Shown: in pieces, positions 5,601 through 43,300 of the stretch | Numbering within the stretch: the stretch's first letter is position 1 | Layout of the letters: every line of letters starts with the position of its first letter | Origin: Eledone cirrhosa | Taxonomy: Eukaryota | Direction: 5' to 3' | Assembly: GCA_964016885.1 (NCBI GenBank) | Contig: OZ024756.1 | Location: 16,616,001-16,680,000, forward strand | Length of the DNA: 64,000 bases | The notes under the pieces: model-generated | Told to the model about the DNA's origin: nothing | Seen by the model: the letters and a program-made list of their open reading frames with translations, nothing else | The model's database searches: none | Position numbers and translations under genes: made by a program

Positions 5601-8600
5601 CATACATCCCACATCTTGAGACACACGAGGCAGCTAAAGTATTCCAGTGACCACGGTCAGTTGTATCTATCATACATCCCACATCTTGAGACACACGAGG
5701 CAGCTAAAGTATTCCAATGACCACGGTCAGTTGTATCTATCATACATCCCACATCTTGAGACACACGAGGCAGCTAAAGTATTCCAGTGACCACGGTCAG
5801 TTGTATCTATCATACATCCCACATCTTGAGACACACGAGGCAGCTAAAGTATTCCAGTGACCACGGTCAGTTGTATCTATCATACATCCCACATCTTGAG
5901 ACACACGAGGCAGCTAAAGTATTCCAGTGACCACGGTCAGTTGTATCTATCATACATCCCACATCTTGAGACACACGAGGCAGCTAAAGTATTCCAGTGA
6001 CCACGGTCAGTTGTATCTATCATACATCCCACATCTTGAGACACACGAGGCAGCTAAAGTATTCCAGTGACCACGGTCAGTTGTATCTATCATACATCCC
6101 ACATCTTGAGACACACGAGGCAGCTAAAGTATTCCAATGACCACGGTCAGTTGTATCTATCATACATCCCACATCTTGAGACACACGAGGCAGCTAAAGT
6201 ATTCCAGTGACCACGGTCAGTTGTATCTATCATACATCCCACATCTTGAGACACACGAGGCAGCTAAAGTATTCCAGTGACCACGGTCAGTTGTATCTAT
6301 CATACATCCCACATCTTGAGACACACGAGGCAGCTAAAGTATTCCAGTGACCACGGTCAGTTGTATCTATCATACATCCCACATCTTGAGACACACGAGG
6401 CAGCTAAAGTATTCCAGTGACCACGGTCAGTTGTATCTATCATACATCCCACATCTTGAGACACACGAGGCAGCTAAAGTATTCCAATGACCACGGTCAG
6501 TTGTATCTATCATACATCCCACATCTTGAGACACACGAGGCAGCTAAAGTATTCCAATGACCACGGTCAGTTGTATCTATCATACATCCCACATCTTGAG
6601 ACACACGAGGCAGCTAAAGTATTCCAGTGACCACGGTCAGTTGTATCTATCATACATCCCACATCTTGAGACACACGAGGCAGCTAAAGTATTCCAGTGA
6701 CCACGGTCAGTTGTATCTATCATACATCCCACATCTTGAGACACACGAGGCAGCTAAAGTATTCCAGTGACCACGGTCAGTTGTATCTATCATACATCCC
6801 ACATCTTGAGACACACGAGGCAGCTAAAGTATTCCAATGACCACGGTCAGTTGTATCTATCATACATCCCACATCTTGAGACACACGAGGCAGCTAAAGT
6901 ATTCCAATGACCACGGTCAGTTGTATCTATCATACATCCCACATCTTGAGACACACGAGGCAGCTAAAGTATTCCAGTGACCACGGTCAGTTGTATCTAT
7001 CATACATCCCACATCTTGAGACACACGAGGCAGCTAAAGTATTCCAGTGACCACGGTCAGTTGTATCTATCATACATCCCACATCTTGAGACACACGAGG
7101 CAGCTAAAGTATTCCAGTGACCACGGTCAGTTGTATCTATCATACATCCCACATCTTGAGACACACGAGACCACGGTCAGTTCTATCTATCAATACTTCA
7201 TTCCAACTCTTGTTGATGTGTTTCAGGTCTCTGATGATTGTCGCTGATTGTCTGCCTCCAGTTCCTTCATCTTGTTATGACCTTTTCACCTCTTTCCACG
7301 GGTGGGGTGGGGGTGGGGGGGATAGAGGACCTGATTAGCAAGTCTCTTCAGTTGGGAGTCATGTGACGTGTCTCAACTAGCTAAGTCGACACTTGTACAT
7401 TATGTAGAGAGAGAGAGGGGCAAGAAGGAAGGAGAGAGAGGGAGAGGCAAAGAATGAGGGAAAAAGAAAGAGAGGCAGAGAAGGAGAGAGAGAGGGAGAG
7501 GCAAATAATGAGGGAGAAAGAAAGAGAGGCAGAGAAGGGGAGAGAGAGAGAGAGAGATTAAGATTTACCTTTTTCAGTTTCTGAGGGGTTTTCAAGGTAC
7601 ATTTCACATCCATCACTGAAGAGGTCTGAATTTGTTTGGCAGCAGTGTTCTGTTGAATTTCTGGTTTCTTGTCTTCTTGGAATGGTGGTAACTGTCCAAC
7701 TTCAGGGGTGGAAGCCTCACGATCTTTGTTCACTAACATCACATCAATAGGACCCGAAGTACTCTTCAAATAAATTTGGTAAATCTGGAAGAGAAAAAAA
7801 AAGATATAAACAATGTACAAAGCCGAATTTTCGACTTTTAACCCTTTAGTGTTCAAACCGCCCGAAAACACCCACACTAAAAAATCGTTCTAAAAATAAA
7901 CAAACCATCATCAAAATCTCGTCAATTCGACACTACTGCGAGATTAGGCCCTTACCTCGAAAATTAACACTTAATATAGTGAAACAACTTGAAACAACAA
8001 GTGTTTTTTTAACTTTGAAAGTACAACAATTTTTTTTTTGTATCAACATGGTTTATGAAAGTAGCGATACCGACTTTGAAGGTTTTACACACGATGACAT
8101 TCAGAATGAACAAGAAACAAAAGATAATATTAGTGATTTATCGTCAAATGAATCAGATGTTTACATTTCTGAAATTTCATCCGACGATGATTGTTGTTTT
8201 GAAAGTGAAAACGAAGGAGATCTCCAGGCCGCCATTGAAAATATTACAGCAAAGTAGTTGAAAAATACCACACCAATATATGTTCCCGATTTTATTCAAA
8301 ATACTGGTCCACAACACACATTAGCTCCCGATGCTAAAGCACTGGATTATTTCTTTTTGTTTTTACCATAAACTTTCTTCGAAGTTGTGGCAGAAGAGAT
8401 TAATCGATATGCCCAACAACAGATTTCAAATCGAGGAAAACCCGATCTGTTTGGCGACCGACAGATGCAAGCATTTTTTACCGTAAATATTATGTTCGGT
8501 ATAAAACAATTTCCAAGACTGTGGAATTAAAGGAGCACTGATATATGGTTTAGTGATCCTTATATATCAAGTATTATGCCGAAAACAACGTATTTAAAAT

Positions 8601-11600
8601 GAAACCAGTATTTGCACCTGGTTGATACTTCAAATGCCCCTATTAATTAATTTCACCTGCCCATAAAAGTCAAATTTAACCAAAAAAATCAGGTAAAATT
8701 ATACAATTGTAAATAATTGATATTTAAACATCTACTGACAAAATTTCAAGCCTGCACATAGAAAATTAAGGAATTACAAACAAATAAAATTGATAACCCT
8801 CTTGAGTATGATTAACTCAAAATAATTGTTTCTACTTTTGGCACAAGGCCAGCAATTATCCCAGTACATTACTGGTACTTTATTTTATCGACCCTGTAAG
8901 GATGAAAGGCAAAGTTAACCTCGACCGGATTTGAACTCAGACCATAAAGGACGTAACTCTTTGCTGCAAAGTATGGCGTCCGACTCTCTACTGATACTGC
9001 CAATCCAACTCAAAATAATTGTTTCTACTTTAGGCACAAGGCCAGCAATTACCCAGTGCATTACTGGTACTTTATTTTATCTACCTCGTAAGGATGAAAG
9101 GCAAAGTCAACCTCGGCAGGATTTGAACTCAGATCGTAAAGGGACGTAAGTATGCTGCAAAACATGGCGTCCGACTCTCTACTGATACTGCCAATCCAAC
9201 TCAAAATAATGCAAACAGATAAGCATGACGTTTGAAAATTAATGCGGATGCTAAAGGGTTAAACCAGCCATATCCGGCCAGAATTCTCTCATCTCTTTCT
9301 GTTCAAACCAACTGTTCATACTGATGTTAAGGTATTGATCTCAAAATTAATAATATCAAAATCTCACAGATCCAATATTATGTGAGATAATTTTGTGAGG
9401 TAAAACCTTTACTGCATAAATACAATAGTAAATATTATAGAGTAATGTAAATGTTAAAGGGTTAATATAATTCTCAGGCTCATATAACCTTAATGTAATT
9501 CTCAGGGAGATTCAGTATGACAAAATCTGGCCCTTTGAATTACAGGTACAGTCCAATTGATGGGCTTCCAAACAGTTTCTGTCTGCCCAATATCACTCAG
9601 AAGGCTTGGGTTGACCTGAGCTATGTTAAATGATACTTGCCCAAGAGGTCAGTGACTGGGATTGAACCCGAGACTTAATGATTGTGAAACAAACTTCTTA
9701 ACCATTCAAAAATGTTGTGTCCACATCATCCTCCATACACATCACACGTCTGTACCTGTGCAGTCTTCCCCACACACATCACATGTCTGTACCAGTGCAG
9801 TCTTCTCCACACACATCACACGTCTGTACCAGTGCAGTCTTCCCCACACACATCACACGTCTGTACCAGTGCAGTCTTCTCCACACACATATCACATGTC
9901 TGTACCAGTGCAGTCTTCTCCACACACACATCACATGCCTGTACCAGTGCAGTCTTCTCCACACACATCACACGTCTGTACCAGTGCAGTCTTCCCCACA
10001 CACATCACACGTCTGTACCAGTGCAGTCTTCTCCACACACATCATGTCTGTACCAGAGCAGTCTCCCAGACACATCACATGTCTGTACCAGTGCAGTCTT
10101 CTCCACACACACATATCACATGCCTGTACCAGTGCAGTCTTCTCCACACACACATATCACATGCCTGTACCAGTGCAGTCTTCTCCACACACACATCACA
10201 TGTCTGTACCAGTGCAGTCTTCTCCACACACACATATCACATGTCTGTACCAGTGCAGTCTTCTCCACACACACATATCACATGTCTGTACCAGTGCAGT
10301 CTTCTCCACACACACATATCACATGCCTGTACCAGTGCAGTCTTCTCCACACACACATCACATGTCTGTACCAGTGCAGTCTTCTCCACACACACATATC
10401 ACATGCCTGTACCAGTGCAGTCTTCTCCACACACACATATCACATGCCTGTACCAGCGCAGTCTTCTCCACACACACATCACATGTCTGTACCAGTGCAG
10501 TCTTCTCCACACACACATCACATGCCTGTACCAGTGCAGTCTTCTCCACACACACATATCACATGTCTGTACCAGTGCAGTCTTCTCCACACACACATCA
10601 CATGCCTGTACCAGTGCAGTCTTCTCCACACACACATATCACATGTCTGTACCAGTGCAGTCTTCTCCACACACACATCACATGCCTGTACCAGTGCAGT
10701 CTTCTCCACACACACATATCACATGTCTGTACCAGTGCAGTCTTCTCCACACACACATCACATGCCTGTACCAGTGCAGTCTTCTCCACACACACATATC
10801 ACATGCCTGTACCAGTGCAGTCTTCTCCACACACACATCACATGTCTGTACCAGTGCAGTCTTCTCCACACACACATATCACATGCCTGTACCAGTGCAG
10901 TCTTCTCCACACACACATATCACATGCCTGTACCAGTGCAGTCTTCTCCACACACACATCACATGCCTGTACCAGTGCAGTCTTCTCCACACACACATAT
11001 CACATGTCTGTACCAGTGCAGTCTTCTCCACACACACATCACATGCCTGTACCAGTGCAGTCTTCTCCACACACACATATCACATGTCTGTACCAGTGCA
11101 GTCTTCTCCACACACACATCACATGCCTGTACCAGTGCAGTCTTCTCCACACACACATATCACATGTCTGTACCAGTGCAGTCTTCTCCACACACACATC
11201 ACATGCCTGTACCAGTGCAGTCTTCTCCACACACACATATCACATGTCTGTACCAGTGCAGTCTTCTCCACACACACATCACATGCCTGTACCAGTGCAG
11301 TCTTCCCCACACACACATATCACATGCCTGCACCAGTGCAGTCTTCTCCACACACATATCACATGTCTGTACCAGTGCAGTCTTCTCCACACACATATCA
11401 CATGCCTGTACCAGCGCAGTCTTCTCCACACACACATCACATGTCTGTACCAGTGCAGTCTTCTCCACACACACATCACATGCCTGTACCAGTGCAGTCT
11501 TCTCCACACACACACATCACATGCCTGTACCAGTGCAGTCTTCTCCACACACACATATCACATGCCTGTACCAGTGCAGTCTTCTCCACACACACATATC

Positions 11601-14600
11601 ACATGTCTGTACCAGTGCAGTCTTCTCCACACACATATCACATGCCTGTACCAGTGCAGTCTTCTCCACACACATATCACATGCCTGTACCAGTGCAGTC
11701 TTCTCCACACACATATCACATGTCTGTACCAGTGCAGTCTTCTCCACACACATATCACATGCCTGTACCAGTGCAGTCTTCTCCACACACACATATCACA
11801 TGCCTGTACCAGTGCAGTCTTCTCCACACACATATCACATGTCTGTACCAGTGCAGTCTTCTCCACACACACATCACATGTCTGTACCAGTGCAGTCTTC
11901 TCCACACACACATCACATGCCTGTACCAGTGCAGTCTTCTCCACACACACACATCACATGCCTGTACCAGTGCAGTCTTCTCCACACACACATATCACAT
12001 GTCTGTACCAGTGCAGTCTTCTCCACACACATATCACATGCCTGTACCAGTGCAGTCTTCTCCACACACATATCACATGCCTGTACCAGTGCAGTCTTCT
12101 CCACACACATATCACATGTCTGTACCAGTGCAGTCTTCTCCACACACATATCACATGCCTGTACCAGTGCAGTCTTCTCCACACACACATATCACATGCC
12201 TGTACCAGTGCAGTCTTCTCCACACACACATCACATGCCTGTACCAGTGCAGTCTTCTCCACACACACATATCACATGCCTGTACCAGTGCAGTCTTCTC
12301 CACACACACATCACATGCCTGTACCAGTGCAGTCTTCTCCACACACACATATCACATGCCTGTACCAGTGCAGTCTTCTCCACACACACATATCACATGC
12401 CTGTACCAGTGCAGTCTTCTCCACACACACATATCACATGCCTGTACCAGTGCAGTCTTCTCCACACACACATATCACATGCCTGTACCAGTGCAGTCTT
12501 CTCCACACACACATATCACATGCCTGTACCAGTGCAGTCTTCTCCACACACACATATCACATGCCTGTACCAGCACAGTCTTCTCCACACACACATATCA
12601 CATGCCTGTACCAGTGCAGTCTTCTCCACACACACATATCACATGTCTGTACCAGTGCAGTCTTCTCCACACACATATCACATGCCTGTACCAGTGCAGT
12701 CTTCTCCACACACATATCACATGCCTGTACCAGTGCAGTCTTCTCCACACACATATCACATGCCTGTACCAGTGCAGTCTTCTCCACACACACATATCAC
12801 ATGCCTGTACCAGCACAGTCTTCTCCACACACACATATCACATGCCTGTACCAGTGCAGTCTTCTCCACACACACATATCACATGCCTGTACCAGTGCAG
12901 TCTTCTCCACACACATATCACATGCCTGTACCAGTGCAGTCTTCTCCACACACACACATCACATGCCTGTACCAGTGCAGTCTTCTCCACACACATATCA
13001 CATGCCTGTACCAGTGCAGTCTTCTCCACACACACATATCACATGCCTGTACCAGTGCAGTCTTCTCCACACACACATATCACATGCCTGTACCAGTGCA
13101 GTCTTCTCCACACACACATATCACATGCCTGTACCAGCGCAGTCTTCTCCACACACACATATCACATGCCTGTACCAGTGCAGTCTTCTCCACACACACA
13201 CATCACATGTCTGTACCAGTGCAGTCTTCTCCACACACATATCACATGCCTGTACCAGTGCAGTCTTCTCCACACACACATATCACATGCCTGTACCAGT
13301 GCAGTCTTCTCCACACATATCACATGCCTGTACCAGTGCAGTCTTCTCCACACACACACATCACATGCCTGTACCAGTGCAGTCTTCTCCACACACATAT
13401 CACATGCCTGTACCAGTGCAGTCTTCTCCACACACACACATCACATGCCTGTACCAGTGCAGTCTTCTCCACACACATATCACATGCCTGTACCAGTGCA
13501 GTCTTCTCCACACACATATCACATGTCTGTACCAGTGCAGTCTTTTCCACACACACATCACATGTCTGTACCAGTGCAGTCTTCTCCACACACACATATC
13601 ACATGTCTGTACCAGTGCAGTCTTCTCCACACACACATCACATGTCTGTACCAGTGCAGTCTTCTCCACACACACATCACATGCCTGTACCAGTGTAGTC
13701 TTCTCCACACACACACATCACATGCCTGTACCAGTGCAGTCTTCTCCACACACACATATCACATGCCTGTACCAGTGCAGTCTTCTCCACACACACGTCA
13801 CATGTCTGTGCCAGTGCAGTCTTCTCCACACACACATCACATGTCTGTACCAGAGCGTCTTCTCTCTTGCACACTATATCTGATTCCTCTTACATCATAG
13901 TTATCCTCTCAGCTTATCTCAGAATAACAACCAGCCAGCCAGCCATGTGAAGAGAGAGAGAGAGATAGAGAAAGAGAAGAAAGGAGAAACAAAGGATAGA
14001 CAGACAAAAGCAACAATGATTAAAACGCAGGTGTACTTACACCTTTCTGATCTGGGATCCCTAGTTGGGTCCCTGACGGTGCCTGTATGGATAATAAAGT
14101 ACAGTCAGGAAACACCTTACATATATCCTCGTAGCTCACGTAAGCCAACCTGAGACACAGTCAAGGAATAAATAATAAAACAAAGGGAAATAACTCTAGA
14201 CATTTCACATAACTCATAATCAACATCGTTTTTTACGTCCGTTTTTCTACGCTTACATGGATTGGACAGAGATAGAAGAGATTTAGTTTAGTATACAGTG
14301 AAATTCTGTCATAAGGAAATTCACGGGGTATAAAAAAAATTCCTTGTAACGAAAAATTCTTTATAACGAGATTGACCGAAACAAATTGAGCGTCTGTTTG
14401 TTATTACCTCAGGGATCACCCATGAGAGGGCACCAGTTTGAAAGGATTTAGTCGATCATATTGGCCTTAGTGCTTATTTGATCAAACTCTTTTTGTTGAA
14501 CTGTTAAGTTATGGGACATAAACAGTAAATATAAACTCCAACGCTAGCATGGGTTAGACGAGTTGTCCTGTTGTGGGCAATGCTAGGTAAGGTGACCATG

Positions 14601-14655: not shown

Positions 14656-17600
14656 GGATTCTTTTTTAATTAGAAGGTAAGAACTAGGGAGGTAAGTCTT
14701 GAGAGACCACGATTGGATCAAGATTGAATAAAAATAGAAGAAAAATAATTTTTTCTAGCCGACTCAAAGAATCCAATTTCCCTGATATACAAAATAGTCA
14801 GTAAATCAAAGTATACTTCTAGACGTGTTAAGTCATATATATATATAATTTGGTAGACCTGTCTTATATTATATACAGTGAAATTCCGTTATAACGAAAT
14901 TCACAGGGCATAAAAAAATTCGTTGTAATGAAAAATTCTTTATAACAAGATAGACCGAAATAAATCGAGCGTTTCTTTGTTACCTCAGGGATTGAAAAAA
15001 ATTTCGTTATAATGGTATTCGTTATAACGGAATTTTACTGTATAGACATGGTTCCAATGTGGGTGGGATACGGCTCAGCCAACTGACCAGGTCCTCCTCA
15101 TAACGCTCCACCCAGGGTCCCACTATGAGCAAGGTTCAGTGCAGCCACCAGGCCAGACATGGTTCATATCGGGACCGCTCGGTAACATGGCTCCTTTACG
15201 AGTCAGACTTGGTGTGGCCAACTGGCCCAACCTCCCTCATAGCAACCTTGGAAATATAATTGTTTCTACTTTTGGCACAAGGCCAACAATTACCCAGTGC
15301 ATTACTGGTACTTTATTTTATCGAAGCCGTAAGGATGAAAGGTAAAGTTAACCTCGGCGTTATTTGAACTCAGAATGGCAAGGGCCGTAACTCAATGCGT
15401 CAAAGCATGGCGTCCGACCTTCTACCGATAATGCCAATCCGGAAATATAATGAAAGCTGTTACAATAGGACATGGAGGTGTGAAATAATGATATACAATA
15501 GAGCCTCAATTCACGAATGCCTCCCATCACAAACAAATAGGTCCATGAAAACATTTCCGAACATAAAACGTCTTGGCTGACAAACGGTGTCTCTCGTAAC
15601 AAACACACAAGCCAGCAACAACAGTTGGCAACAAGCTGGAAGTATCGGTGGGAAACTGTCACTTGCTGTGTAGTTAATTACTATGGTGATATCTATCTGT
15701 CTTTCACTATCTCTCTCTCTCTCTCAACATTTCGTATGGAAAAAATAGTTCCAGTTTACGAACATTTCAGTCGATGAATGTCCTTCAGGTACGAATTAAG
15801 TTCGTGAGCTGAAGTTCCACTGTAATTGTAATGAAAAGGTTACAATAGGACGTGGAGGTGTGAAATTTACCTTTACAAAAGTCAATGCGTATTTTTGTCC
15901 ATCAAACACACTAGAGATGACTGAGGAAGGAAGGGGTGATTACATCGACTGAGGAAGGAAAGGAAAGGGGGTGTCTAAGCAGCATCTAACATTCGCTACA
16001 CCTGTGTGTGTATATGTATAGCGAATTGGCTACACACATTGGCTGTTATGATTATATGAATGTTTGTGTATGTGTATATGTGTGTTAATATTTATATATA
16101 TTTGTAAGAGTGTATGTGTGTTTATTTAGAAAGATACATCATCATTTCATTTTACGTCCGCTTTTTCCCTGCTTGCAAGGGTGGGACGTGAACTGATTCT
16201 GGCCTGATTTCTACAGCTGGATGCCCTTCCTAACACCAACCTCATTTACAGTGAGTGCTGGGTGCTTTTCTGCCGTGGCACCTCCACGACCACTTTGCAG
16301 TGGAATGATATAGACCCCAGTCCCTATCATCTCATTTCTATAGCTGAGTAAACTGGAGCAATGTGAAATAAAGTGTCTTGCTCAAGGAAACAACACATCA
16401 CCCGGTCTGAGAATAGAACTCACAACCTTTCGATTGCAAAGCCAATGCTCTAACCACTAAGCCATGTGCCTCCATGGACAATAGAATTCCAAACACACAT
16501 GAATCTACACATACATATATATAAACCTAGAAAAAATAATTATTACATACACACACATCTATGTGATGACTGAGGAAGGAGTGGGGTGAGAAACTATAGA
16601 TGTCCAGTGTTTTAAGATTCGTCACAGCTGTGTGTTTGTATGTTTGTATCACTTGTGTGATACACAAAGGAACCAACCAACATTTCTTTTTTTATATTAT
16701 GTATAGATATTGCAATTAGCCATCACTTTTCATGGCAAAGGGCCAGCTAGTAATGAAATAACAGTGGTAACAACAAAGGATACTGGCTATTTGAGACTTC
16801 TTCTATAACATTTTTAATACTTTGTTGGACCCAGCTTTTATGTTTGTCCAGTTGTTTTTCTCGTTCATCCAAAGACTCAATCTCTTTCTTCAAATTCACA
16901 AGACGATCCGAGATTTCCCTTGAATTACAGCCTGGTCCAGCACCCCTTCAAAGAGACAAAATATATATATATATATAAAAGAGGTTACGACAATAGTCTT
17001 TCAGTTATTACAGTAATTTTAATATGAAAAAAAAAACAAAGTTCCAAATCTGTTTCAAGCCCTGAGGCTGATTAGGGTAAAGACTTCCTTCTGTCACGAA
17101 TGACTATGGGATTTGCACCTAGAATATTCCCTCTCCAAAGCACAAGTCCAGGCAAAGTCTGTTTGTGGAAGATCAGCAATACATTCCAGTCCTCCTTTCC
17201 ACGCCACTGATGTTGCCCAAGGAAAAGGCAAAGGCCAATGCAGCTTGGCACCAGTGACATCACAACTCATTTCTTCTGCTGAATGAACTGGAGCAATGTG
17301 AAATAAAGTGTCTTGCTCAAGAACACAACGCAAAGCCAGGTCTGAGAATCGAACTCACAACCTTACCTTTGTAAGCCCAACACTCCAACCACTAACCCAT
17401 GTGCCTTCAGAGGAGGCTGATTAGGCCAGTGCTTATCCTGGTTTTCTTGGCATTAAGCGGTAGAGTACAAGATTCTACCAGGACAAGATGTCAGTCCATT
17501 GCAGCTGCCAGTACTCATTATCAGGTTCAGTATACTGGAACAATGTGAAATGAAGTGTTTTGCTCAAGAACACACCACACAACTCAGTCCAGGAATCGAA

Positions 17601-20600
17601 CCTACATTACGATCGTAAGTCCAACACCTTAACCACCAGGCCACACATATTCACTATTTTAATATAGATTACTATCATTAATAATGGAGATATTACTTTA
17701 ATAATGATCATAATGGAACCAAGTGTATTTAATACAGAACACATTTAACCCTTTAGCATTTATATTACTCTATATTTACTTTTGTATTTCGTTGTAAAGG
17801 CTTTATCTCACATAATATTAAATCTACAAGATTTTGATATTATTTATTTTGAGAACAATACCTTAATGTTGGTATGAGTGGCCGGTTATAACAAGTTTAA
17901 ACAGAAAGAGGTGAATTGGCAGTATAGGTAGAGGGCCGGACATGCTTTCCAGCGTAGTTACGTCCATTTACGATCTGATTTCAAATCCCGCCGAGGTTAA
18001 CTTTGCCTTGCATCCTTACGGGGTCGATAAAATAAAGTACCAGTAATGTACTGGGTAATTGCTGGCCTTGTGCCTAAAGTAGAAACAATTATTGTACTTA
18101 CTTCCATTGGATACTGTTTTTAGATTTCTTCTCTATCAAACCAATTCCTTCTAGAACATTTGTGATGTCATATATCCGTCGTTTCTGTCTTACAGCCAAT
18201 GTATCTGCAGCCTGTCATGGAAATTATAGAGAGTAGAGGGAGGACTTAACCAAGACCACACCACACTACAACACACAACACAACACCATACTACACCACC
18301 ACAATGCACCATGTGTCATGGAAATTATAGAGTAGAGGAAGGACTTAACCAACACACCACACTATAACACAGTACAACACACCACAGAACACCACACAAC
18401 ATCATGCACCACAGTATAACACACTACACTATACCCTGTGTGTCATGGAAATTATAGAGTAGAGAGTGGACTTAACCAACACTACACTACTATATACTAC
18501 ACCACAACACAACACCATACATTACAGCATAACACACTACACTACGCCATCCAGTGTGTCCTATGAAAATTATAGAGATAGGGGACTAACTTAAACAAAC
18601 ATCAGCAACACTAACATACTTGCCACACCACACCAGAACACAGCACCATACAGCACAACAAACTACCATACACCACAACACAATACACATTACACCACCA
18701 TACACCACAACACATCACATTAAGACCATATACTGTAACAAAACAAACCATCACCAAATGGCGAGGACTGTGATGAAAAAAAATAAACGGCCAATCTCGG
18801 TTTTCTCCGAAGTTCCCCCTACGACCACACCCCCGATAATAGATCGTTAATCCGAAAGATTTGGGGAATAAGGAAACTTTCAATCAATCACCCTTCTATT
18901 TTTCTTTCTCTCTCAATTCCCTTCTGATTATTACCTTGACAATCTAACCCACTTGCATTGCACAGCTTTCTATATAAACGGACTTTTCATATGGCGTTAG
19001 GCAGTAATACAAAAGACGCCTTCCCATGCACACGTACTTTAACATACATCTAGTATATACCTCCACCCTCCCACTTCTGTCCACACCACCCTTACACAGT
19101 AAAGTGGACGTGTAGGCGCCACGTCAAAAAGCACCCAGCACACACTGCAAATGTGGTTGACGTTAAGAAGGGCATCCAGCCGTAGAAACCTAGCCAGAAA
19201 CAGTTCAATATGAGCAATACACAGTCACCTGACCCGACTTGCCCCTAATGGGACAACCCGTCTAACCCATACTAATGTGGAAAATGGACGCTAAACAATG
19301 ATGATGATATGTCAGCCTTTCTAGTGTTGGTGATTTACACGATAAACGTCTCCAATACACACTGTAAAGTGGTTGGTGTTAGAAAGCCGTAAAAAGCTTG
19401 CCAAACGAATGGTTGAGAGGATCCTTTAGTCGTGTCAAAGACATGACAGCCTCTCTTAAGACCATACATAAGCGAGATGCAGATCCCTGGTCTGTTTAAG
19501 TGGTCTGTAGCCCCGCTTCAATACTGCCATAGTCTATGTAGACCAGTCGAACCATTACTAACAGGAAAAGCGATAAAACGTTGATGATGCTTATGATACA
19601 CACACATATATATATATAAAATAGAAATGGCTTCTACAGAACTAGAAGTGTTTCCTTCGAAGGAAATCATCAGGAAAGCCCTTCGAATGAAACAGTTCTA
19701 GTCCTGGAGAAGCCATTTCTATATTAAATATTGTATATACTCTACGATGTATTGAGTACCTTACTGTGGTTACCCCCCGATTGAACCCGGGAAATACATA
19801 TACACTGTAAATGAGGTTGGTGTTAGGAAGGGCATCCAGCTGTAGAAATCAAGCCAGAATCAGTTACCGTCCCACCCTTGCAAGCAGGGAAAAGCGGACG
19901 TAAAATGAAGATGATGATGATGATGATGATGTATATGAGAGAGGAAATCAGAACGTGAGCTTATGTAAGAATTATGTACATTATATTACAACTGTTGTTG
20001 TTACTATACAAAAGAGAGACAGTGCTTATATTTGTGTGAATGACGTCACACGACTGTGCGTGTTCTGTATATACACCCCACACTCTCTCTCTCTATCTCA
20101 TTCTAACCGACAAAACAGTATTCTATGTTTAAAACCACGTGTAGTCAATATAAATATAAAGCTGAGAATAAATATTACGGGAGAGGCCGAACCAGCTAGC
20201 GAACTGACTAACCAACCTAAACCCACACGTGCTTTAATGGAACGGTCTCAGAGCATTCTTATTCTCCTCCTTCACAAACACTAATATTCTTGTACTCTTT
20301 TACAGGTTTTAGACATTGACTGCGGTCATGCTGGGGCACAACCATAAAGAGGTTTAGTCGATCATATCGATCCCCCTTTTTTTTTTCCAAGTCACGTATT
20401 TATTTTATTGATCTTTTATTTTGCCGAATCTCTAAGTTACGAGACAAACAGAAAATCCACACACATGTGTATGTGTGTTTATATATACATTCACACGTGA
20501 GTGTATATGTATGTGCAACGGATTTCAGTCTACTGAATTTCACAAGCCATTGGGTCAAGTAATGGTGGTGATAGTAGTAGTAGTAGTAGTGGTGGTAGTG

Positions 20601-24402: not shown

Positions 24403-25141
24403 TGTGTGTAAAAAGTAAACGGGGAAAAAACACGACGAAGTTCAATGAAGATATATATTAGTTTCACGCGTAATATAGTAGGAAAAGGCTTAACGTATCG
24501 GACACTAGATCTTCGTCAGAAAATAAAAAGAGAAATTAAAGAAGAAATAGAAAGATAGAGGAGAATGAGCAGGGGTAGAAACGAAAATATATATTTGACT
24601 TATGTTACTCTGAAAATTTTTGAACGGGAAACTATCGTTATGAGCCGGAAATAATTAAAAGTGGTAACAATTTGAAATGGATCACCGTTATTTGTCAGAA
24701 TCGAAAACAACTTTTTTGTTTGTTTTTGTAGCTTTTTTCGATTATTTTTTTTATTTAAATTTATAATTTTTCTTTTATATATATTCTTATTTTTATTATC
24801 TGTTTACGTCAATAGATAAGTGTCAGAGACAAACAAGAAATGACTTGTTTATATATATATATATATATATATTTATATAAACATACACATTACACACACG
24901 CATATATATATATACATACAAACCACAATACATTAACACATGTAGTAGTCTGTACATATACATGTGTGTATATATATATATATATGTGTGTGTGTAAAAG
25001 ACACGACGGTTGTTAACTCACCACTTTTAGATCGAGTACTCCATCTTTGGCTTCCTGTAACAAAGATACAAATTTAGTGGTGAGAAGTCCAAGACTTTTC
25101 TCGTGGCGACTGGGTGTGGTGTGATCCGTGGCAGCCATCAT
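2520..25141 (-). CDS. E2F4: E2F4/5-family transcription factor, paralog A, 3'-incomplete in window: exons 25022-25141, 18102-18211, 16784-16945, 14041-14149, 7569-7784, 2520-2631
   Basis: Six exons join in frame (829 nt, no stops) and are homologous exon for exon to paralog B. No Rb-binding exon was found at 1-2519, so the gene probably continues beyond the window edge. Confidence 0.92.
3388..3727 (-). mobile_element. SINE fragment with internal 49-bp tandem repeats, interrupting the first unit of the 60-bp satellite
   Basis: GACCACTTTACAGTG...GGCACCTCCAT repeated about 4 times; a similar expansion is at 46880-47160. Confidence 0.7.
3728..7168. repeat. 60-bp tandem satellite, about 57 copies, in intron 5 of paralog A
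   Basis: Unit CATACATCCCACATCTTGAGACACACGAGGCAGCTAAAGTATTCCA(A/G)TGACCACGGTCAGTTGTATCTAT, almost invariant. Confidence 0.98.
7569..7784 (-). CDS. E2F4: E2F4/5 paralog A exon 5 ([21 protein letters not shown]...TPQKLKK)
   Basis: Poly-T CTTCCAG acceptor, AAG|GTAAAT donor, 216 nt. Confidence 0.9.
7842..9258 (+). mobile_element. Decayed piggyBac transposon with transposase pseudogene (PGBD4-like) and two nested SINEs (8820-9210)
   Basis: TTAA-CCCTTTAG ... CTAAAGGG-TTAA termini. Acidic N-terminus, then [25 protein letters not shown] and MQAFF..IMFGI..P..RSTD..IMP..YLHL with stops and frameshifts. Confidence 0.85.
9735..13858. repeat. 37/39/41-bp minisatellite with embedded (CA)n, about 100 copies, in intron 4 of paralog A
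   Basis: Unit CACATG(C/T)CTGTACCAGTGCAGTCTTCTC(CA)nTAT; it has no stop codon on +, hence the spurious 1300-1400 aa ORFs in all three frames. Confidence 0.98.
14041..14149 (-). CDS. E2F4: E2F4/5 paralog A exon 4 ([36 protein letters not shown])
   Basis: 109 nt, preceded by U12 branch site TTCCTTGAC and CAG; GTAAGT donor. Confidence 0.92.
14150..16783 (-). other. U12-type (minor spliceosome) GT-AG intron 3 of paralog A
   Basis: 5' site GTATCCTTT; branch site TTCCTTGAC about 12 nt before the AG; no long polypyrimidine tract. Animal E2F genes are known carriers of U12 introns. Confidence 0.9.
14876..15040. mobile_element. Tigger/mariner-type MITE (partial copy at about 14296-14415)
   Basis: TA-CAGTGAAATTCCGTTATAACGAA ... 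TTCGTTATAACGGAATTTTACTG-TA. Confidence 0.8.
16784..16945 (-). CDS. E2F4: E2F4/5 paralog A exon 3 ([53 protein letters not shown])
   Basis: 162 nt, AAG acceptor, followed by U12-type donor GTATCCTTT. Confidence 0.92.
18102..18211 (-). CDS. E2F4: E2F4/5 paralog A exon 2 ([37 protein letters not shown])
   Basis: 110 nt, CAG acceptor and GTAAGT donor; nucleotide-identical to 44360-44469. Confidence 0.95.
18212..18630. repeat. Degenerate tandem copies of the exon 2 acceptor region in paralog A intron 1
   Basis: GTCATGGAAATTATAGAGTAGAG..GACTTAACC recurs at about 18213, 18314, 18441 and 18557. Confidence 0.8.
19620..19795. mobile_element. Penelope-like inverted pLTR fragment with hammerhead motif (family also at about 25905, 26760-26950, 56000-56175, 61556-61750)
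   Basis: Inverted-repeat arms containing CTGATGA-stem-GAAAC, inserted next to TA repeats. Confidence 0.65.
25022..25141 (-). CDS. E2F4: E2F4/5 paralog A exon 1 ([40 protein letters not shown])
   Basis: 120 nt, GTGAGT donor, canonical E2F4/5 N-terminus. Confidence 0.93.
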
Positions 25142-32462: not shown

Positions 32463-32518
32463 CGATATGGTTTAAGAGGTCAGATGAAAGAAAAAGAGAC
32501 AAAATAATGCATGAGGTA

Positions 32519-32670
32519 TCAATAGAAGGGTGTGGTCGATGACGTGGCAGTGGCATGTGGGGGGAGCAGAGGCACATCAAAGAAATCACAGACGCCTTCA
32601 CTGTCATCCAAATGGAACTGATAGTCTCTTTCACTGGGCGGAGGACTGAGGCGCAACAGAGGTTCCAAAC
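32519..32670 (-). CDS. E2F4: E2F4/5 paralog B last exon ([50 protein letters not shown])
   Basis: TTTTCAG acceptor; Rb/p107/p130-binding transactivation motif; TGA stop. Confidence 0.93.
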
Positions 32671-35600: not shown

Positions 35601-38600
35601 TTACCCAGTACATTACTGGTACTTTATTTTATCGACCCCCGTAAGGATGAAAGGCAAAGTTAACCTCGGCGGGATTTGAACTCGGACTATAAAGGGCCGT
35701 AACTCTTTGCTGCAAAGCATGGCATCCGACCCTCTACCGATACTGCCAATCCACCACTCTTTGTAATATAAAATAATAAAAATTAGTTGTAATGTGTGCA
35801 ATTAATTGTAATGTATGTAATTAGTTGTCGTGTGTGGCCCTCAGACAACACATATGTGACCCATGTGGCCCTAGGGGACCCTCAGTTTGACATGCCTGCT
35901 CTAGACAACTCTGATATATAAAAAGTAACTGTAGTACTTACTATAAGAAGGTTTTGTGCTGTTAAAAAGAAGATCATTTGTGAGGTTATCGGTAAGATTG
36001 GTATTGGTCAGTTGACTGTTAGTATGAGCTGTAACAGAAATTAAACCATAGTTTTGTAATGAGTTAATTATTTAACAGATCATCATAAAACTTACAGACT
36101 CGTTCTCTCTGTTTATCTAGCAATCCTGCGACTGGTAGATAATGGTTTCTACTTTAGGCACAAAACCAACCATTTGGGGAGGAAGGGAAAGTCGATTAAA
36201 TCGACCCCCCAGTGCATTACTGGTACTTTATCCAGTGCATTACTGGTACTTTATTTTATCGACCCTGTAAGGATGAAAGGCAAAGCTAACCCCAGCGGGA
36301 TTTGAGTTCAGAATGTAAAGGGCCATATCTCTGTGCTGTAAAGCATGTTGTCCGACACTGTACCAATTTCTATTCGAAAGAATAATGGAAACATTGTTTC
36401 CATGGTCCAAATTGACAAGATCCACACCACTCAGTAAGTGAATGAGGTCTGGGATCTTGTCGGTTGACTTCCTCTCCTCCTCCTCTTTTTGTCTACCTCT
36501 TCTCTCTGTCAAGAGAGAAGAGGTAGGGGAGAAAGGAGAGGCAGAGGAGGAGGAAGAGAGGGAGGAGAAACAAGAGAGAGCGAGAGTGAGAGAGAGAGAC
36601 AAGAGAGAGCGAGAGAGAGACAAGAGAGAGCGAGAGAGAGACAAGAGAAGGAAAGAGAGAAAGAAAATGGAACAAAAAAGAAGAGTTGAAAAGAAAACAT
36701 ACGTAATATATTCGTATATGGCTGAGATAGTTTGCGTGGTGATGACCGTGTTGTCATTCGATTTAAAGGTGAAAGTGGAGTTTTCAGTGGAGATTTCTGG
36801 AAAATACATAAGGAGAAAGGTGAGAACAACACCAACAGGTGTTTTCACCCTTTTTTTACTGCATTTCTAATAAAATACACTACTTTAACCTTTTAGTGTT
36901 CAAACCGGCCAGAATTCTCTACCTCTCTGTTGAAACTGGCTGTAACTGGTCGCTCAAACTGATGTTAAGGTATTGTTCTCAAAATAAATACTTTCAAAAT
37001 CTCATAGATTCGATATTATGTGAGATAATTATGCGAGGTAAAGCCTTTACCATGAAAATACAATAGTATATATAGAGTAATGTGAATGTTATGTGAGATA
37101 TTATGTGAGGTTAAGCCTTTACCATGAAAATACAATAGTATATATAGAGTAATGTGAATGTTATGTGAGATATTATGTGAGGTTAAGCCTTTACCATGAA
37201 AATACAATAGTATATATAGAGTAATGTAAATGTTATGTGAGGTAAAGCCTTTACCGTGAAAATACAATAGTATATATAGAGTAATGTAAATGTTATGCGA
37301 GGTAAAGCCTTTACCATGAAAATACAATAGTATATATAGAGTAATGTAAATGTTATGCGAGGTAAAGCCTTTACCATGAAAATACAATAGTATATATAGA
37401 GTAATGTAAATGTTATGCGAGGTAAAGCCTTTACCATGAAAATACAATAGTATATATAGAGTAATGTAAATGTTATGCGAGGTAAAGCCTTTACCATGAA
37501 AATACAATAGTATATATAGAGTAATGTAAATGTTATGCGAGGTAAAGCCTTTACCATGAAAATACAATAGTATATATAGAGTAATGTAAATGTTATGCGA
37601 GGTAAAGCCTTTACCATGAAAATACAATAGTATATATAGAGTAATGTAAATGTTATGCGAGGTAAAGCCTTTACCATGAAAATACAATAGTATATATAGA
37701 GTAATGTGAATGTTATGTGAGGTAAAGCCTTTACCATGAAAATACAATAGTATATATAGAGTAATGTGAATGTTATGTGAGATATTATGTGAGGTTAAGC
37801 CTTTACCATGAAAATACAATAGTATATATAGAGTAATGTGAATGTTATGTGAGATATTATGTGAGGTTAAGCCTTTACCATGAAAATACAATAGTATATA
37901 TAGAGTAATGTGAATGTTATGCGAGATATTATGTGAGGCAAAGCCTTTACCATGAAAATACAATAGTATATATAGAGTAATGTAAATGTTATGTGAGGTA
38001 AAGCCTTTACCATGAAAATACAGTAGTATATATAGAGTAATGTAAATGTTATGCGAGGTAAAGCCTTTACCATGAAAATACAATAGTATATATAGAGTAA
38101 TGTAAATGTTATGCGAGGTAAAGCCTTTACCATGAAAATACAATAGTATATATAGAGTAATGTAAATGTTATGCGAGGTAAAGCCTTTACCATGAAAATA
38201 CAATAGTATATATAGAGTAATGTAAATGTTATGCAAGGTAAAGCCTTTACCATGAAAATACAATAGTATATATAGAGTAATGTAAATGTTATGTGAGGTA
38301 AAGCCTTTACCATGAAAATACAATAGTATATATAGAGTAATGTAAATGTTATGCGAGGTAAAGCCTTTACCATGAAAATACAGTAGTATATATAGAGTAA
38401 TGTAAATGTTATGCGAGGTAAAGCCTTTACCATGAAAATACAATAGTATATATAGAGTAATGTAAATGTTATGCGAGGTAAAGCCTTTACCATGAAAATA
38501 CAATAGTATATATAGAGTAATGTAAATGTTATGCGAGGTAAAGCCTTTACCATGAAAATACAATAGTATATATAGAGTAATGTAAATGTTATGCGAGGTA

Positions 38601-40307
38601 AAGCCTTTACCATGAAAATACAATAGTATATATAGAGTAATGTAAATGTTATGTGAGGTAAAGCCTTTACCATGAAAATACAATAGTATATATAGAGTAA
38701 TGTAAATGTTATGCGAGGTAAAGCCTTTACCATGAAAATACAATAGTATATATAGAGTAATGTAAATGTTATGCGAGGTAAAGCCTTTACCATGAAAATA
38801 CAATAGTATATATAGAGTAATGTAAATGTTATGCGAGGTAAAGCCTTTACCATGAAAATACAATAGTATATATAGAGTAATGTAAATGTTATGCGAGGTA
38901 AAGCCTTTACCATGAAAATACAATAGTATATATAGAGTAATGTAAATGTTATGCGAGGTAAAGCCTTTACCATGAAAATACAATAGTATATATAGAGTAA
39001 TGTAAATGTTATGCGAGGTAAAGCCTTTACCATGAAAATACAATAGTATATATAGAGTAATGTAAATGTTATGTGAGGTAAAGCCTTTACCATGAAAATA
39101 CAATAGTATATATAGAGTAATGTGAAAGCTAAAGGGTTAAAAAAAAAACTATACATAAATTTCAGGGACTTCCGTCTGTCACGTAATTTGTGTGTGTGAA
39201 CGTAGTGTGTGTAAAAGGAAGGAAGGAAGGGATGGTGAAAACCCATAGCAAAACAGTGGCTGGCGTTCTATTTGCTACACTGTGTATGAGTACGTGTGTG
39301 TAAATGTATGTCTGTGAGTGTGTATTTTTGTAAGAGTGTCTGTGTTTGCGCGTTTATATTTATATACTCATACATATAAATGTATAAGTATGCACATACA
39401 CACATATGCGTCAGAGTGTTGAAAAATTCCTAGTCATTAAAAATTTGGAGGAATTTAATAAGATAATACCTAGAGATGAAAAGGGCATCCATCCATAGAA
39501 AGCTTGGCAAACAAAGAGTTTGAAGGAGCCTTCAGTTGTGTCGAAGACATGACAACCTCTCCAGTGCACTGGGTGAAATGAGACTGTATGTAAGTGAGAT
39601 GCAGATCCCTGGCCTGTCTGGGTGGTCAGTAGCCACGCTTCAGTACTGACTTGGTCTATATAGACATGTCCAACCCTTACTAGCAGGGAAAGCAGACATT
39701 AAACCGATGATGATGATAATGAATTCATCTTTTCATTAAGTTGATGTTTGAACATTACTCAACAAAATTTCTTTAAATATTTTGAGAGAAGGTTTTAATT
39801 TTAACCCTTTAGCATTTAAAATGGCCATATCCAGCCAGAATTCTTTTACCTCTTTCTGTTCAAACCGACTAACTGGCCACTCATACTTATTTTAACCCTT
39901 TAGTATTTAAACCAGCCATATCCAGTCCTAAATCTCTCACCTCTTTCTATTCAAACAGTGCTGGGTGCTTTTTTGCCGTGGCACATCCACGATCACTTTA
40001 CAATGGAATGATAGGTACCCCAGTCCCTATCATCTCATTTCTACAGCTGAGTAAACTGGAGCAATGTGAAATAAAGTGTCTTGCTCAAGGAAACAACACA
40101 TCACCCGGTCTGAGAATTGAACTCACAACCTTTCGATTGCAAGGCCAATGCTCTAACCACTAAGCCATGTGCCTCCATATATATATAATATACACATAAA
40201 AAATGTGGGTAATATTAAATATTATCCAATTACAAGTATGTAATTGTGGTTGGATGAAATGATTGTTATTAAATGTTCTTAAACATTCTTTGATTGTTAT
40301 TTATAAA

Positions 40308-40363
<56 letters not shown>

Positions 40364-43300
40364 AGGGAGTGTAACTTGGAGTTACTGCTTTCCCTGATAG
40401 CAAGGGTTGGACATGTCTATATATATATATTGACAGTCGATCGACTTTTGTCAAATTAGACTGAGGAAACAATGTTTCCATTGGTCTTTTCAATTGCTAA
40501 ATCTATCAGTCGCAAATCCAGGTAGAAGGAGCAACATGAAATAAAGTGTCTTGCTCAAGGGCATAACGCATCACCCACCCAGTCCAGGAATCAAACTCAC
40601 AACCTCACGATTGCAAATCCAATTCTCTAACCACTTAACCGTGTGCCTTCTCTTTCTCTCTCTCTATACACACACACACATGGTGCTTTAAAGGAATCCA
40701 GCTATAGAAACCATGCCAAAACCTGAATGCTTATGAGATGCCACTACCCTAATCTAGGACACTACTTCCAATTAAGTACTGAGATACACAGCATCCCTGT
40801 GCATCGTAAACAGCAAATAAAAGGGAGTCAGGAAGGGCATTCAACTGTAAAATATTGCCTCAAAATGTCTCCGTCAACCCATGCTAATATGGGAAAGTCG
40901 ACAAAAAACAGTGGTGATGGTGGTGGTGGTGGTGGTGGTGGTGTTGGTGATGGTGGTGGTGGTGTTGGTGGTGGTGATGGTGTTGGTGATGGTGTTGGTG
41001 ATGGTGTTGGTGTTGGTGATGGTGATGGTGTTGGTGTTGGTGTCGGTGATGGTGTCGGTGATGGTGTCGGTGATGGTGTTGGTGTCGGTGGTGTTGATGA
41101 TGGTGGTGGTGTCGGTGGTGTTGATGATGGTGGTGGTGTTGGTGTTGGTGGTGGTGGTGGTGTTGGTGTTGGTGGTGGTGTTGGTGTTGGTGTTGGTGGT
41201 GGTGGTGGTGATGGTGTTGGTGGTGGTGTTGGTGGTGGTGGTGGTGTTGGTGGTGGTGGTGGTGTTGGTGGTGGTGGTGGTGTTGGTGGTGGTGGTGGTG
41301 TTGGTGGTGGTGGTGTTGATGATGGTGATTATAATGATGGTGACAGAGCGAGACAGTCACCCAACCAATCGTGCCTCAAGTGGGACAATCCCCGTCTAAC
41401 CCATGCTAGCGTGGAAGATAGATCTTAAACGATGATGATGATATACTTTTCTCTGCTGTTTGTGTGGAGTCTTTAAAGGAGACTTGGCTTCGTTGACTGC
41501 AGCAATTGGGGTCTGATTCTGTGACATCTCCATTTTTTTTACATCCTCGTGGAACGGTGGAACCTGGACAACTTCTGCAAACGGCGAGTCGGTGTCTTTG
41601 TTCACTAACATTACATTGATGGGACCAGAATTACTCTTCAAGTGGATCTGGTACTTCCTTAAGATTCCTGGACCCTGAAAAACAACAACAGCAACAACAC
41701 CAATATAAAGAAACTTAAAGACAAAAAAACAACAGCAAGCATTTTAACCCTTTCCTTACCCTATTTTTAATGAAATATATATTTTGTATTTTATTTAGTT
41801 AATTAAGAATTTGGGAAGGATTTACTAAAATGGTAATTTCATTAAGAAGGCATGTATCTTTTTTTTTCTTCTTCACCCACATATCCCTTGTGAGCGGGGG
41901 GTTGGGGGGGGGGGGGGGGGGGGGTTGACAAAGGCTTCAAATAATCTTTTAATATTTCCATTTTCAAAGGATTTAGTAACTTTCATTATTTATCTGATAT
42001 TCAGAGAATAGTGGAACAAATGTCCTTATATAAAAAAAAAAGTGATGTAATGTTTCTAGATAAATAAAATCATTTGAAAATAAAATCAGGGCAGGTATAG
42101 GGAGTTTGGTATCAAAAGGGTTAATGATACATTGTATCTGTAGAATACCCAGCCATTACATGTAGGTACCTCAGTTGGTTAACAACTTGATATTCATCGT
42201 TGAAACCAACAGTGAACCATTTGTTTTATATTCCCTTGTCTTTAGCCACTTATATCTGGCAGAGTCCTCAAACACTCCTTCCAGCAGGTCCTGTCAGCAG
42301 TAACCATCTCCAATTGATCAGGCTGGACCACCAAACAAGACCAGCCAAGCTCATGGTCTACCCCTGGGTCTCTTGTCAGTTGGTTGGTTTGTTTTGCCCA
42401 TAAAATCTGTCCAGCGATTCTTTCCTGAGATATTCTAATTCTAACCACATGCCCATATCATAGCTGTGTTGTTAATTAAAAAAAGTAGCATCTCTACCTG
42501 GAGTGACTCCCTGATCTCCGAGCCAAGCACTATTGAGTAATGTTACTCCAAAGACCCTTTAGTGGAACCCCATTTCAACCACTTGTATTCTAACCACATA
42601 TCGGAGCTGTAATCTCTCAGTTCAGAGAAATAGCAGCTCTACATGGAGTGACTATCTGATCTCCAAGCTACACACTAAGTAATGTTATTCCAAAAACCTT
42701 TTGGAGGAACCCCATGTGTAAACTAACAAAATATGTGTTCTCATTTATTCATTGATATTGAGACATTGACACAACTTAGAGATTTTGTGCTACTTACTAT
42801 TTCAGGTAATGGAACACCAAGTTGTGTCCCTGATGGTGCCTGTACCGATAGTAAAATACTGCCAGGAAATACACTGCAAACATCTTCGTAACTCACATAG
42901 GCCATCTTCATACCTACAAAAGAACATTGAAGAATTTACTTTATCAAAGTAGCATTTAAACCGGCCATATCCAGCCAGAATTCTCTCACCTCTTTCTGTT
43001 CAAACCGGCTGCTACTTATGTTAAAGTATTGTTTTAAATAAATAATATCAAAATCTCATAGATTCGATATCATGAAAATGCAACAGTATAAATAGAGTAA
43101 TGTAAATGCTAAAGGGTTAACCCTTTTGTGGCAGTATTTATAACGAAGTACTCTGTATTCTAATTAATTGATTGATGAAGAATTTTGAACAATTTACCTA
43201 CACAAACAACAGCATCAACACACACCAATACCACCAACACCATCAACACCTACATGAACACCATCATCTATACAAACACCAATACCAACAACATCGCCAC

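Follow-up and report, generated by a model that had tools for sequence, protein, structure and literature searches.

A tandem pair of E2F4/5 genes

The window, by which we mean the whole 64-kb stretch of DNA analyzed here, contains two E2F4/5-type genes arranged in tandem on the minus strand. Gene B spans 59801 to about 32515, while gene A begins at 25141 and continues below 2520. In each, exons 1–5 join into an open reading frame with standard or U12-like splice sites, and the resulting models are 69.8% identical to one another over these exons. Across the same exons, the Octopus orthologues are 93–96% identical to the gene A model and 89–91% identical to that of gene B.

The exon models, all on the minus strand, place the coding part of gene A exon 1 at 25022–25141, exon 2 at 18102–18211, exon 3, which is followed by a U12-like intron, at 16784–16945, exon 4 at 14041–14149, exon 5 at 7569–7784, and exon 6, with candidate ends, at 2520–2631; no gene A exon beyond this was found within the 64-kb window. 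The coding part of gene B exon 1 lies at 59682–59801 and exon 2 at 44360–44469. Exon 3 is placed at 43519–43676, with a donor deduced from the reading frame and the length of the orthologues, and a read contig from organism C (organisms are lettered separately from the two genes) covers 43521–43676 of it. Exons 4 and 5 follow at 42798–42913 and 41447–41674, and exon 6, again with candidate ends, at 36703–36796. The last coding exon of gene B, at 32515–32670 with an approximate end, matches the end of the orthologues P0001 and P0002; the exon or exons between it and exon 6 were not located in the window. This last exon carries a conserved E2F C-terminal block, a putative pocket-protein-binding motif; its gene A counterpart was not found in the window.

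Exon 2 encodes the second half of the E2F winged-helix DNA-binding domain, including the RRIYD motif. Its peptide alone, scanned on the gene B copy, matches the Pfam E2F_TDP domain (PF02319) at 61.2 bits against a cut-off of 25.7, and two orthologues score 91.9 and 93.8 bits. An E2F/DP winged-helix domain with the RRXYD motif is present and aligns to PDB 1cf7_A with an E value of 7e-37. The coiled-coil/marked-box (CC-MB) dimerization domain (PF16421) was found in a scan of the orthologues P0002 and P0006, whose identity to the window models across exons 1–5 is 89% and 93%. The pair resembles the human E2F4/E2F5 subfamily (PDB 1cf7_A and 5tuu_B) in combining a winged helix with a CC-MB domain, and, judged by family membership, its products would be expected to bind E2F sites with DP and to be regulated by Rb-family proteins. 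At the exon 4/5 junction (14041/7784), within the CC-MB region, about six residues are missing from all octopod A proteins and are retained in the B proteins and in Sepia, so that each paralogue has derived features of its own. At codon 4 of exon 2 (18202–18200 and 44460–44458), both octopod paralogues encode Thr, which is also found in annelids and amphioxus, while Sepia, gastropods, and an oyster have Gln.

Origin of the pair

Searches with exon 3 recovered both paralogues in Argonauta hians, Octopus vulgaris, O. sinensis, and O. bimaculoides. The accessions of each pair are adjacent in O. vulgaris (CAI9737685.1/CAI9737686.1), O. sinensis (XP_029647495.1/XP_029647496.1), and A. hians (GAB1601980.1/GAB1601981.1), and nearly so in O. 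bimaculoides (XP_014780551.1/XP_014780553.1). A further, partial A-type record from O. bimaculoides (P0028, XP_052834238.1) comes from a 2,266-bp contig and is probably an unplaced fragment.

In a tree built without exon 2, the A proteins form one clade (support 100/99) and the B proteins another (100/100), each including A. hians, and the two together form a clade (99/97) with Sepia outside. The other exons group by paralogue, as the earlier note had predicted of a per-exon tree. With Argonauta in both clades and Sepia in neither, the duplication is octopod-specific and occurred on the octopod line before the split of Argonauta from Octopus. It is independent of that in vertebrates: genes A and B are not separate orthologues of vertebrate E2F4 and E2F5 but group together inside the cephalopods. 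A dated tree gives 46 Ma (29–68) for Argonauta–Tremoctopus and 101 Ma for Cirrata–Incirrata (PMC7104719), so that the E2F4/5 pair must date back tens of millions of years or more.

An exact tract over exon 2

Against this age, the two copies of exon 2 lie within a 139-bp run of exact identity (18088–18226 in gene A and 44346–44484 in gene B, both on the minus strand) that comprises 15 nt of intron 1, the exon, and 14 nt of intron 2. The copies are 26,258 bp apart in the same orientation. The earlier note had reported no differences among the 110 positions of exon 2 (18102–18211 versus 44360–44469), 30 differing sites out of 120 in exon 1, and strong divergence in exons 3–6, and had attributed the contrast to gene conversion. 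Recounting gave the same figures for exons 1 and 2, and the in-frame blocks of exons 3–6 differ at 55/165 (a block that extends 4–8 nt into the intron), 26/99, 28/96, and 16/63 sites. Among sequences of the window separated by more than 5 kb, no exact match is longer than this 139-bp run, the next longest being an 86-bp match within a dispersed repeat, and across the five other paralogous exon pairs tested the longest is 17 bp.

The contrast is sharpest at silent sites. None of the 35 degenerate codons of exon 2 differ (0/13 four-fold and 0/22 other), compared with 30/56 four-fold and 23/63 other degenerate sites in the other five exon blocks (P ~2e-9). When the 159 silent codons were permuted as a run test for a tract, the observed run of 36 was reached in none of 200,000 shuffles. 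Introns 3 and 4 have no blastn similarity between the genes, and that in intron 5 is limited to dispersed repeats, none of them positional. What is seen is the local identity, including silent and noncoding sites inside otherwise diverged paralogues, that is characteristic of a gene conversion tract. The presence of intron bases on both sides further implies that the template would have been DNA or unspliced RNA rather than spliced mRNA.

Repeats flanking exon 2

Similarity beyond the exact run is of two kinds. In intron 1 of gene A (18212–18640, minus strand), there is a minisatellite of four units, in every one of which the exon 2 3' splice region recurs. Gene B has a minisatellite of 14 units at 44470–45680 (minus strand), the outer units of which are positional counterparts of those of gene A, and it holds an internal array of an 81-bp unit (10.2 copies, 96% matches). 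The outer units are 88–94% alike by position, to about 18640 and 45680, which bears out the proposal that similarity extends into this flank. For units 1, 2, and 4, the best match is the unit at the same position in the other paralogue, and for unit 3 it is not the positional partner.

In intron 2, a SINE-like repeat (17910–18093, plus strand; the label is that of the earlier note) abuts the exon 2 donor region of gene A with its tail, and gene B carries a longer-tailed form with the same end position (44200–44345, plus strand). The similarity claimed for these tails holds only in part. It extends for 37 bp at 94.6%, and the shared position is informative, but the sequence itself is family-level, since other copies in the window match the gene B tail at 91–97%; gene A matches the departures of gene B from the family majority at only 2 of the 10 sites checked. 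Similarity of the SINE tails and of a MITE-like repeat in intron 2 was therefore rejected as evidence for conversion, the family-level matches being equally good. Although the tails differ in form, their end point in both genes lies about 9 nt from the exon 2 donor (18093–18101 and 44346–44359), and it is possible that a single insertion was later replaced or converted.

Other features of the introns were recorded in passing. The intron 1 units of gene B (44589–45500, minus strand) copy the polypyrimidine tract of exon 2, and most end in CAG, so that by sequence the true 3' splice site would have some 10 potential decoys upstream of it. One frame of the 81-bp unit is open, with stops before exon 2. 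Intron 5 of gene B contains about 35 tandem copies of a 60-bp unit derived from the end of a MITE-like repeat (~37100–39270), and a 4-kb tandem array with long spurious open frames fills most of intron 4 of gene A (~9690–13900).

Two copies of exon 2 in same-species reads

A short, repeat-flanked tract is where an assembly or polishing step could have written one exon 2 over the other, the more so with short reads and with none of the listed contigs reaching across a whole locus. This was addressed with read contigs from four runs, one from each of organisms A–D (4 of the 24 listed runs), compared over 43500–44540 at a likeness of at least 80%. Organism A is the species of the window, and four of its runs contain 9/9 of the words sampled from exon 2. 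In one of these, X2, exon 2 lies in a single 159-bp contig with no differences that ends together with the exact run, at 44484. Two branch contigs continue from 44485, one with T, the gene A flank (depth 5.3), and one with G, the gene B flank (depth ~3.2), and the extra depth in that bin, 8.5, is the sum of the two. The exon 2 contig has a depth of 9.82 and the single-copy exon 3B contig 5.5; depth is a rough guide only, but this roughly two-fold ratio argues against many copies of the exon in the genome. X2 also contains a gene B contig (43500–43838) with no differences, and no second version of exon 2 was found among its contigs listed.

Such a pattern is what two genuine, identical copies of exon 2 would give, and it was observed in short-read contigs from what may be the assembled sample itself, in which case X2 tests the assembly step and is not independent biology. 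With both flank versions connected to a single exon contig at roughly twice the depth, the collapse that the earlier note had raised against its own reading is hardly credible.

Exon 2 in other organisms

A further way to account for the identity is that extreme constraint at the nucleotide level, imposed by splicing, RNA structure, or an overlapping element, has frozen the silent sites since the duplication. Of the nine sampled exon 2 words, all were found only in organism A, seven in organism B (run X5), and two in each of organisms C, D, and E. Organisms C and D each differ from the window exon 2 at seven letters. The changes listed individually are two of the seven for C/D and one for organism B, and all three are silent third positions. 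In a metagenome scan, 13 distant E2F loci, not cephalopod in appearance, vary between them at all 35 degenerate codons. Organism B does differ at one listed exon 2 site compared with seven listed silent sites in exon 3B, as constraint would have it, but this contrast is not significant (Fisher P = 0.14). The earlier note had named invariance of these silent sites across species as what would overturn its reading; they vary instead.

The order of divergences is also inconsistent with constraint. Exon 3 in organism C is of the B type, differing at 24 of 156 nt compared with 53/156 between the paralogues, so this organism must have split from the window species after the duplication. Its exon 2 nevertheless differs by seven letters where the paralogues differ by none, which is again what a conversion tract would produce and indicates that the shared exon is younger than both the genes and that species split. 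On this basis, the paralogues would be expected to differ at about seven sites or more, and the observed zero has P ~0.001. Divergence between species that separated after the duplication exceeds that between the paralogues, and we regard a freeze of the silent sites as exceedingly improbable. The gene conversion reading of the earlier note is thus supported by the silent-site contrast, by the reality of the two copies, and by the variation of the silent sites between species.

Whether conversion has occurred more than once is a separate matter, on which the shapes of the contigs bear. In organism D, exon 2 lies in one 124-bp contig made up of the exon and a few intron bases on each side, with a depth of 42.4, the highest among the eight D contigs listed; such a short contig could also be bounded by heterozygous sites. 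In organism C, a source that we guess to be RNA, one contig consists of 108 nt of upstream sequence and all of exon 2, stopping at the exon end, and the exon 3B contig starts 30 nt before that end. Exon 3B accounts for 7.2 of the extra depth of about 19 there, which indicates at least two continuations out of exon 2; a single exon 1 is connected to it, and the other continuation could be unspliced intron. These shapes suggest one exon common to two genes and carrying species-specific changes, with the existence of two genes in D being an assumption, since its run gives no cover of exon 3B. In organism B, by contrast, a single 566-bp contig passes unbroken through exon 2 at a depth of 16.8, compared with 18.3 for exon 3B, and neither branch contigs nor a second copy of the exon, shared or diverged, were found among the contigs listed. 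In none of the four runs was a second version of exon 2 present among the contigs listed at a likeness of at least 80%, although contig assembly drops small bubbles and would hide one or two differences between paralogues.

A competing account holds that one exon 2 was replaced by the other just once, through conversion or a double unequal crossover, in the lineage of the window alone, in which case the 88–94% flanks would be the decayed edge of the tract and other octopods would retain two diverged exons. The data from within the genome are compatible with it: at the 8.5% divergence of the flanks, the probability of no differences is 0.13 for the exon silent sites alone, and 0.011 with 29 intron bases added, the limits of which were picked after the fact. 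The lack of branch structure in organism B points the same way. Against this, the runs of three other organisms yield no second exon 2 at 80%, although an exon 3B with 24 differences in 156 was detected in C; the D contig stops shortly past either end of the exon; and in C a single path leads into exon 2 and two or more lead out of it. A single event confined to this lineage therefore seems rather improbable to us.

The most likely explanation for the identity of exon 2 is short interlocus gene conversion at the DNA level, probably repeated and not confined to a single lineage, a reading to which we assign a probability of roughly 0.7. Given conversion at all, we think it probable that it recurred. 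The word "recurrent" in the earlier note is to this extent favored by the contigs of organisms C and D, which suggest repetition short of proof, with organism B being uninformative.

Conversion and the recognition helix

The earlier note went further and proposed that conversion keeps the RRIYD helix identical in the two proteins, and this part is not supported. The exon 2 peptide is the same as the matching part of human E2F4 (PDB 1cf7_A), and the same again in amphioxus, so that purifying selection accounts for the protein and conversion is needed only for the silent and intronic sites. In all 13 unrelated metagenome E2F loci, 33–36 of the 36 exon 2 residues are kept, and across all of the A and B proteins counted none of the 36 conserved positions is changed. 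Outside exon 2, window gene B is changed at 22 of 114 conserved positions. In the exon 1 half of the DNA-binding domain, there are five gene B-specific changes at 29 conserved positions, so the domain as a whole has not been homogenized.

A stronger form of that proposal holds that selection actively favors conversion of exon 2 to keep one recognition helix, without which the helix of gene B would drift. The imbalance within the domain is in its favor (5/29 changes in the exon 1 half compared with 0/36 in exon 2; Fisher P = 0.014), as is the Thr common to both octopod genes where Sepia and the other aligned molluscs have Gln. However, the conservation of the peptide from human to amphioxus and across the metagenome loci shows ordinary constraint to be enough, the Thr could predate the duplication, and the five exon 1 changes, being the same in all B orthologues, are old and fixed. 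Such selection is accordingly a very unlikely cause.

A possible course of conversion

How short conversion tracts might come to settle on one exon can be outlined. The likeliest process would be ectopic repair involving the two direct repeats, which lie 26 kb from each other. Only in exon 2 does purifying selection hold both proteins identical, and this stretch would for that reason offer the best homology template; a tract landing there would change no residue and could drift to fixation, and each event, by restoring identity, would favor the next. Elsewhere, silent divergence of about 50% and nonhomologous introns might block pairing, or selection might remove tracts that erase paralogue-specific residues.

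The minisatellite may belong to the same history. Its summed depth is 201–1283 in organism A and 442–2694 in organism B, compared with 4–21 in organism D. Being present in both genes and nearly absent from the D run, it would have arisen after the duplication (a diverged version in D would go undetected), which suggests that it then crossed between the genes in an older, longer tract, of which the common intron 1 array would be the likely mark, and that it may now extend the homology. The predicted outcome is a pair of factors with the same recognition helix that differ in the first half of the DNA-binding domain, in the dimerization region, and in regulation.

A bolder version of recurrent conversion can be imagined, in which exon 2 is a self-renewing module across all incirrate octopods, with each lineage copying it anew on its own over tens of millions of years and the minisatellite, possibly a hotspot, being carried along from one gene to the other, so as to lock two E2Fs to one helix and have them compete for the same promoters with different partners. 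We offer it as speculation and consider it unlikely.

Comparison with known systems

Conversion in exon 2 is a known kind of event in a new gene family, and no new mechanism is shown. The closest parallel in the sources consulted is Dlxa/Dlxb of Capitella teleta, where a Geneconv tract of 150 bp covers part of the homeobox and the adjoining intron (PMC3199776). In both cases, linked and otherwise divergent transcription factor paralogues share 100% identity over part of the DNA-binding domain and an intron, the tracts being 150 and 139 bp. The Dlx genes are inverted, tail to tail, whereas the E2F genes are direct repeats 26 kb apart and belong to the winged-helix family, and for the E2F pair, unlike Dlx as described there, read evidence across species dates the tract to after a species split. 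Homeobox-restricted conversion between ancient linked paralogues is also cited there for hexapod engrailed/invected, which belong to another family in another phylum. Pax3/7a and Pax3/7b of amphioxus are tandem genes with near-identical DNA-binding exons, possibly through conversion (PMC6010424); their paired domain and homeodomain are described as wholly identical in protein, whereas the E2F tract is confined to one exon and half of the DNA-binding domain.

The primate genes for red and green opsin, tandem and about 24 kb apart, are reported to have undergone conversion for tens of millions of years, with mosaic divergence shaped by selection (PMC3924837). They are the inverse of the E2F pair, in that their introns are homogenized and exon 5 is a peak of divergence, whereas E2F exon 2 stands out as identical within genes that have otherwise diverged. 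Among octopods, gene conversion has been proposed for the tandem reflectin and tyrosinase clusters of Argonauta argo (PMC9635652), where the common stretches are long (>1,000 nt for tyrosinase), in contrast to the single exon of a transcription factor pair found here. A literature search by title and abstract, with most subscription journals and the supplements of genome papers (which could list the duplication) outside its scope, returned, among the papers listed, no E2F gene conversion and nothing on the octopod pair; in the text of PMC9023564 available to us, E2F is mentioned only as a motif.

An octopod-specific second E2F4/5 gene, of which no description was found in the literature searched, is thus flagged here. 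As a clean, probable case of concerted evolution of a single exon in so old a pair, it would help to test how long conversion survives at about 50% four-fold divergence, and with orthologous pairs in at least four sequenced octopods, a per-exon test would be cheap. There is also a practical consequence: DNA-binding-domain trees, PCR primers, in situ probes, and CRISPR guides based on exon 2 cannot separate gene A from gene B.

Intron 3

The two genes also appear to differ in the type of their third intron. Judged by the U12 consensus, intron 3 of gene A (16783–14150, minus strand) has U12-like ends, with the donor GTATCCTTT and a branch-like TTCCTTGAC just before the acceptor. In intron 3 of gene B (43518–42914, minus strand), the apparent donor lies 4 nt upstream of a decayed GTATCTT, and the acceptor is U2-like. 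This donor adds one residue, as in the B proteins of Argonauta and Octopus, and one isoform of Sepia also has the extra residue. E2F genes are reported to be rich in minor introns (PMC6865273), and a switch from a minor to a major intron in one of the two paralogues is the likely interpretation.
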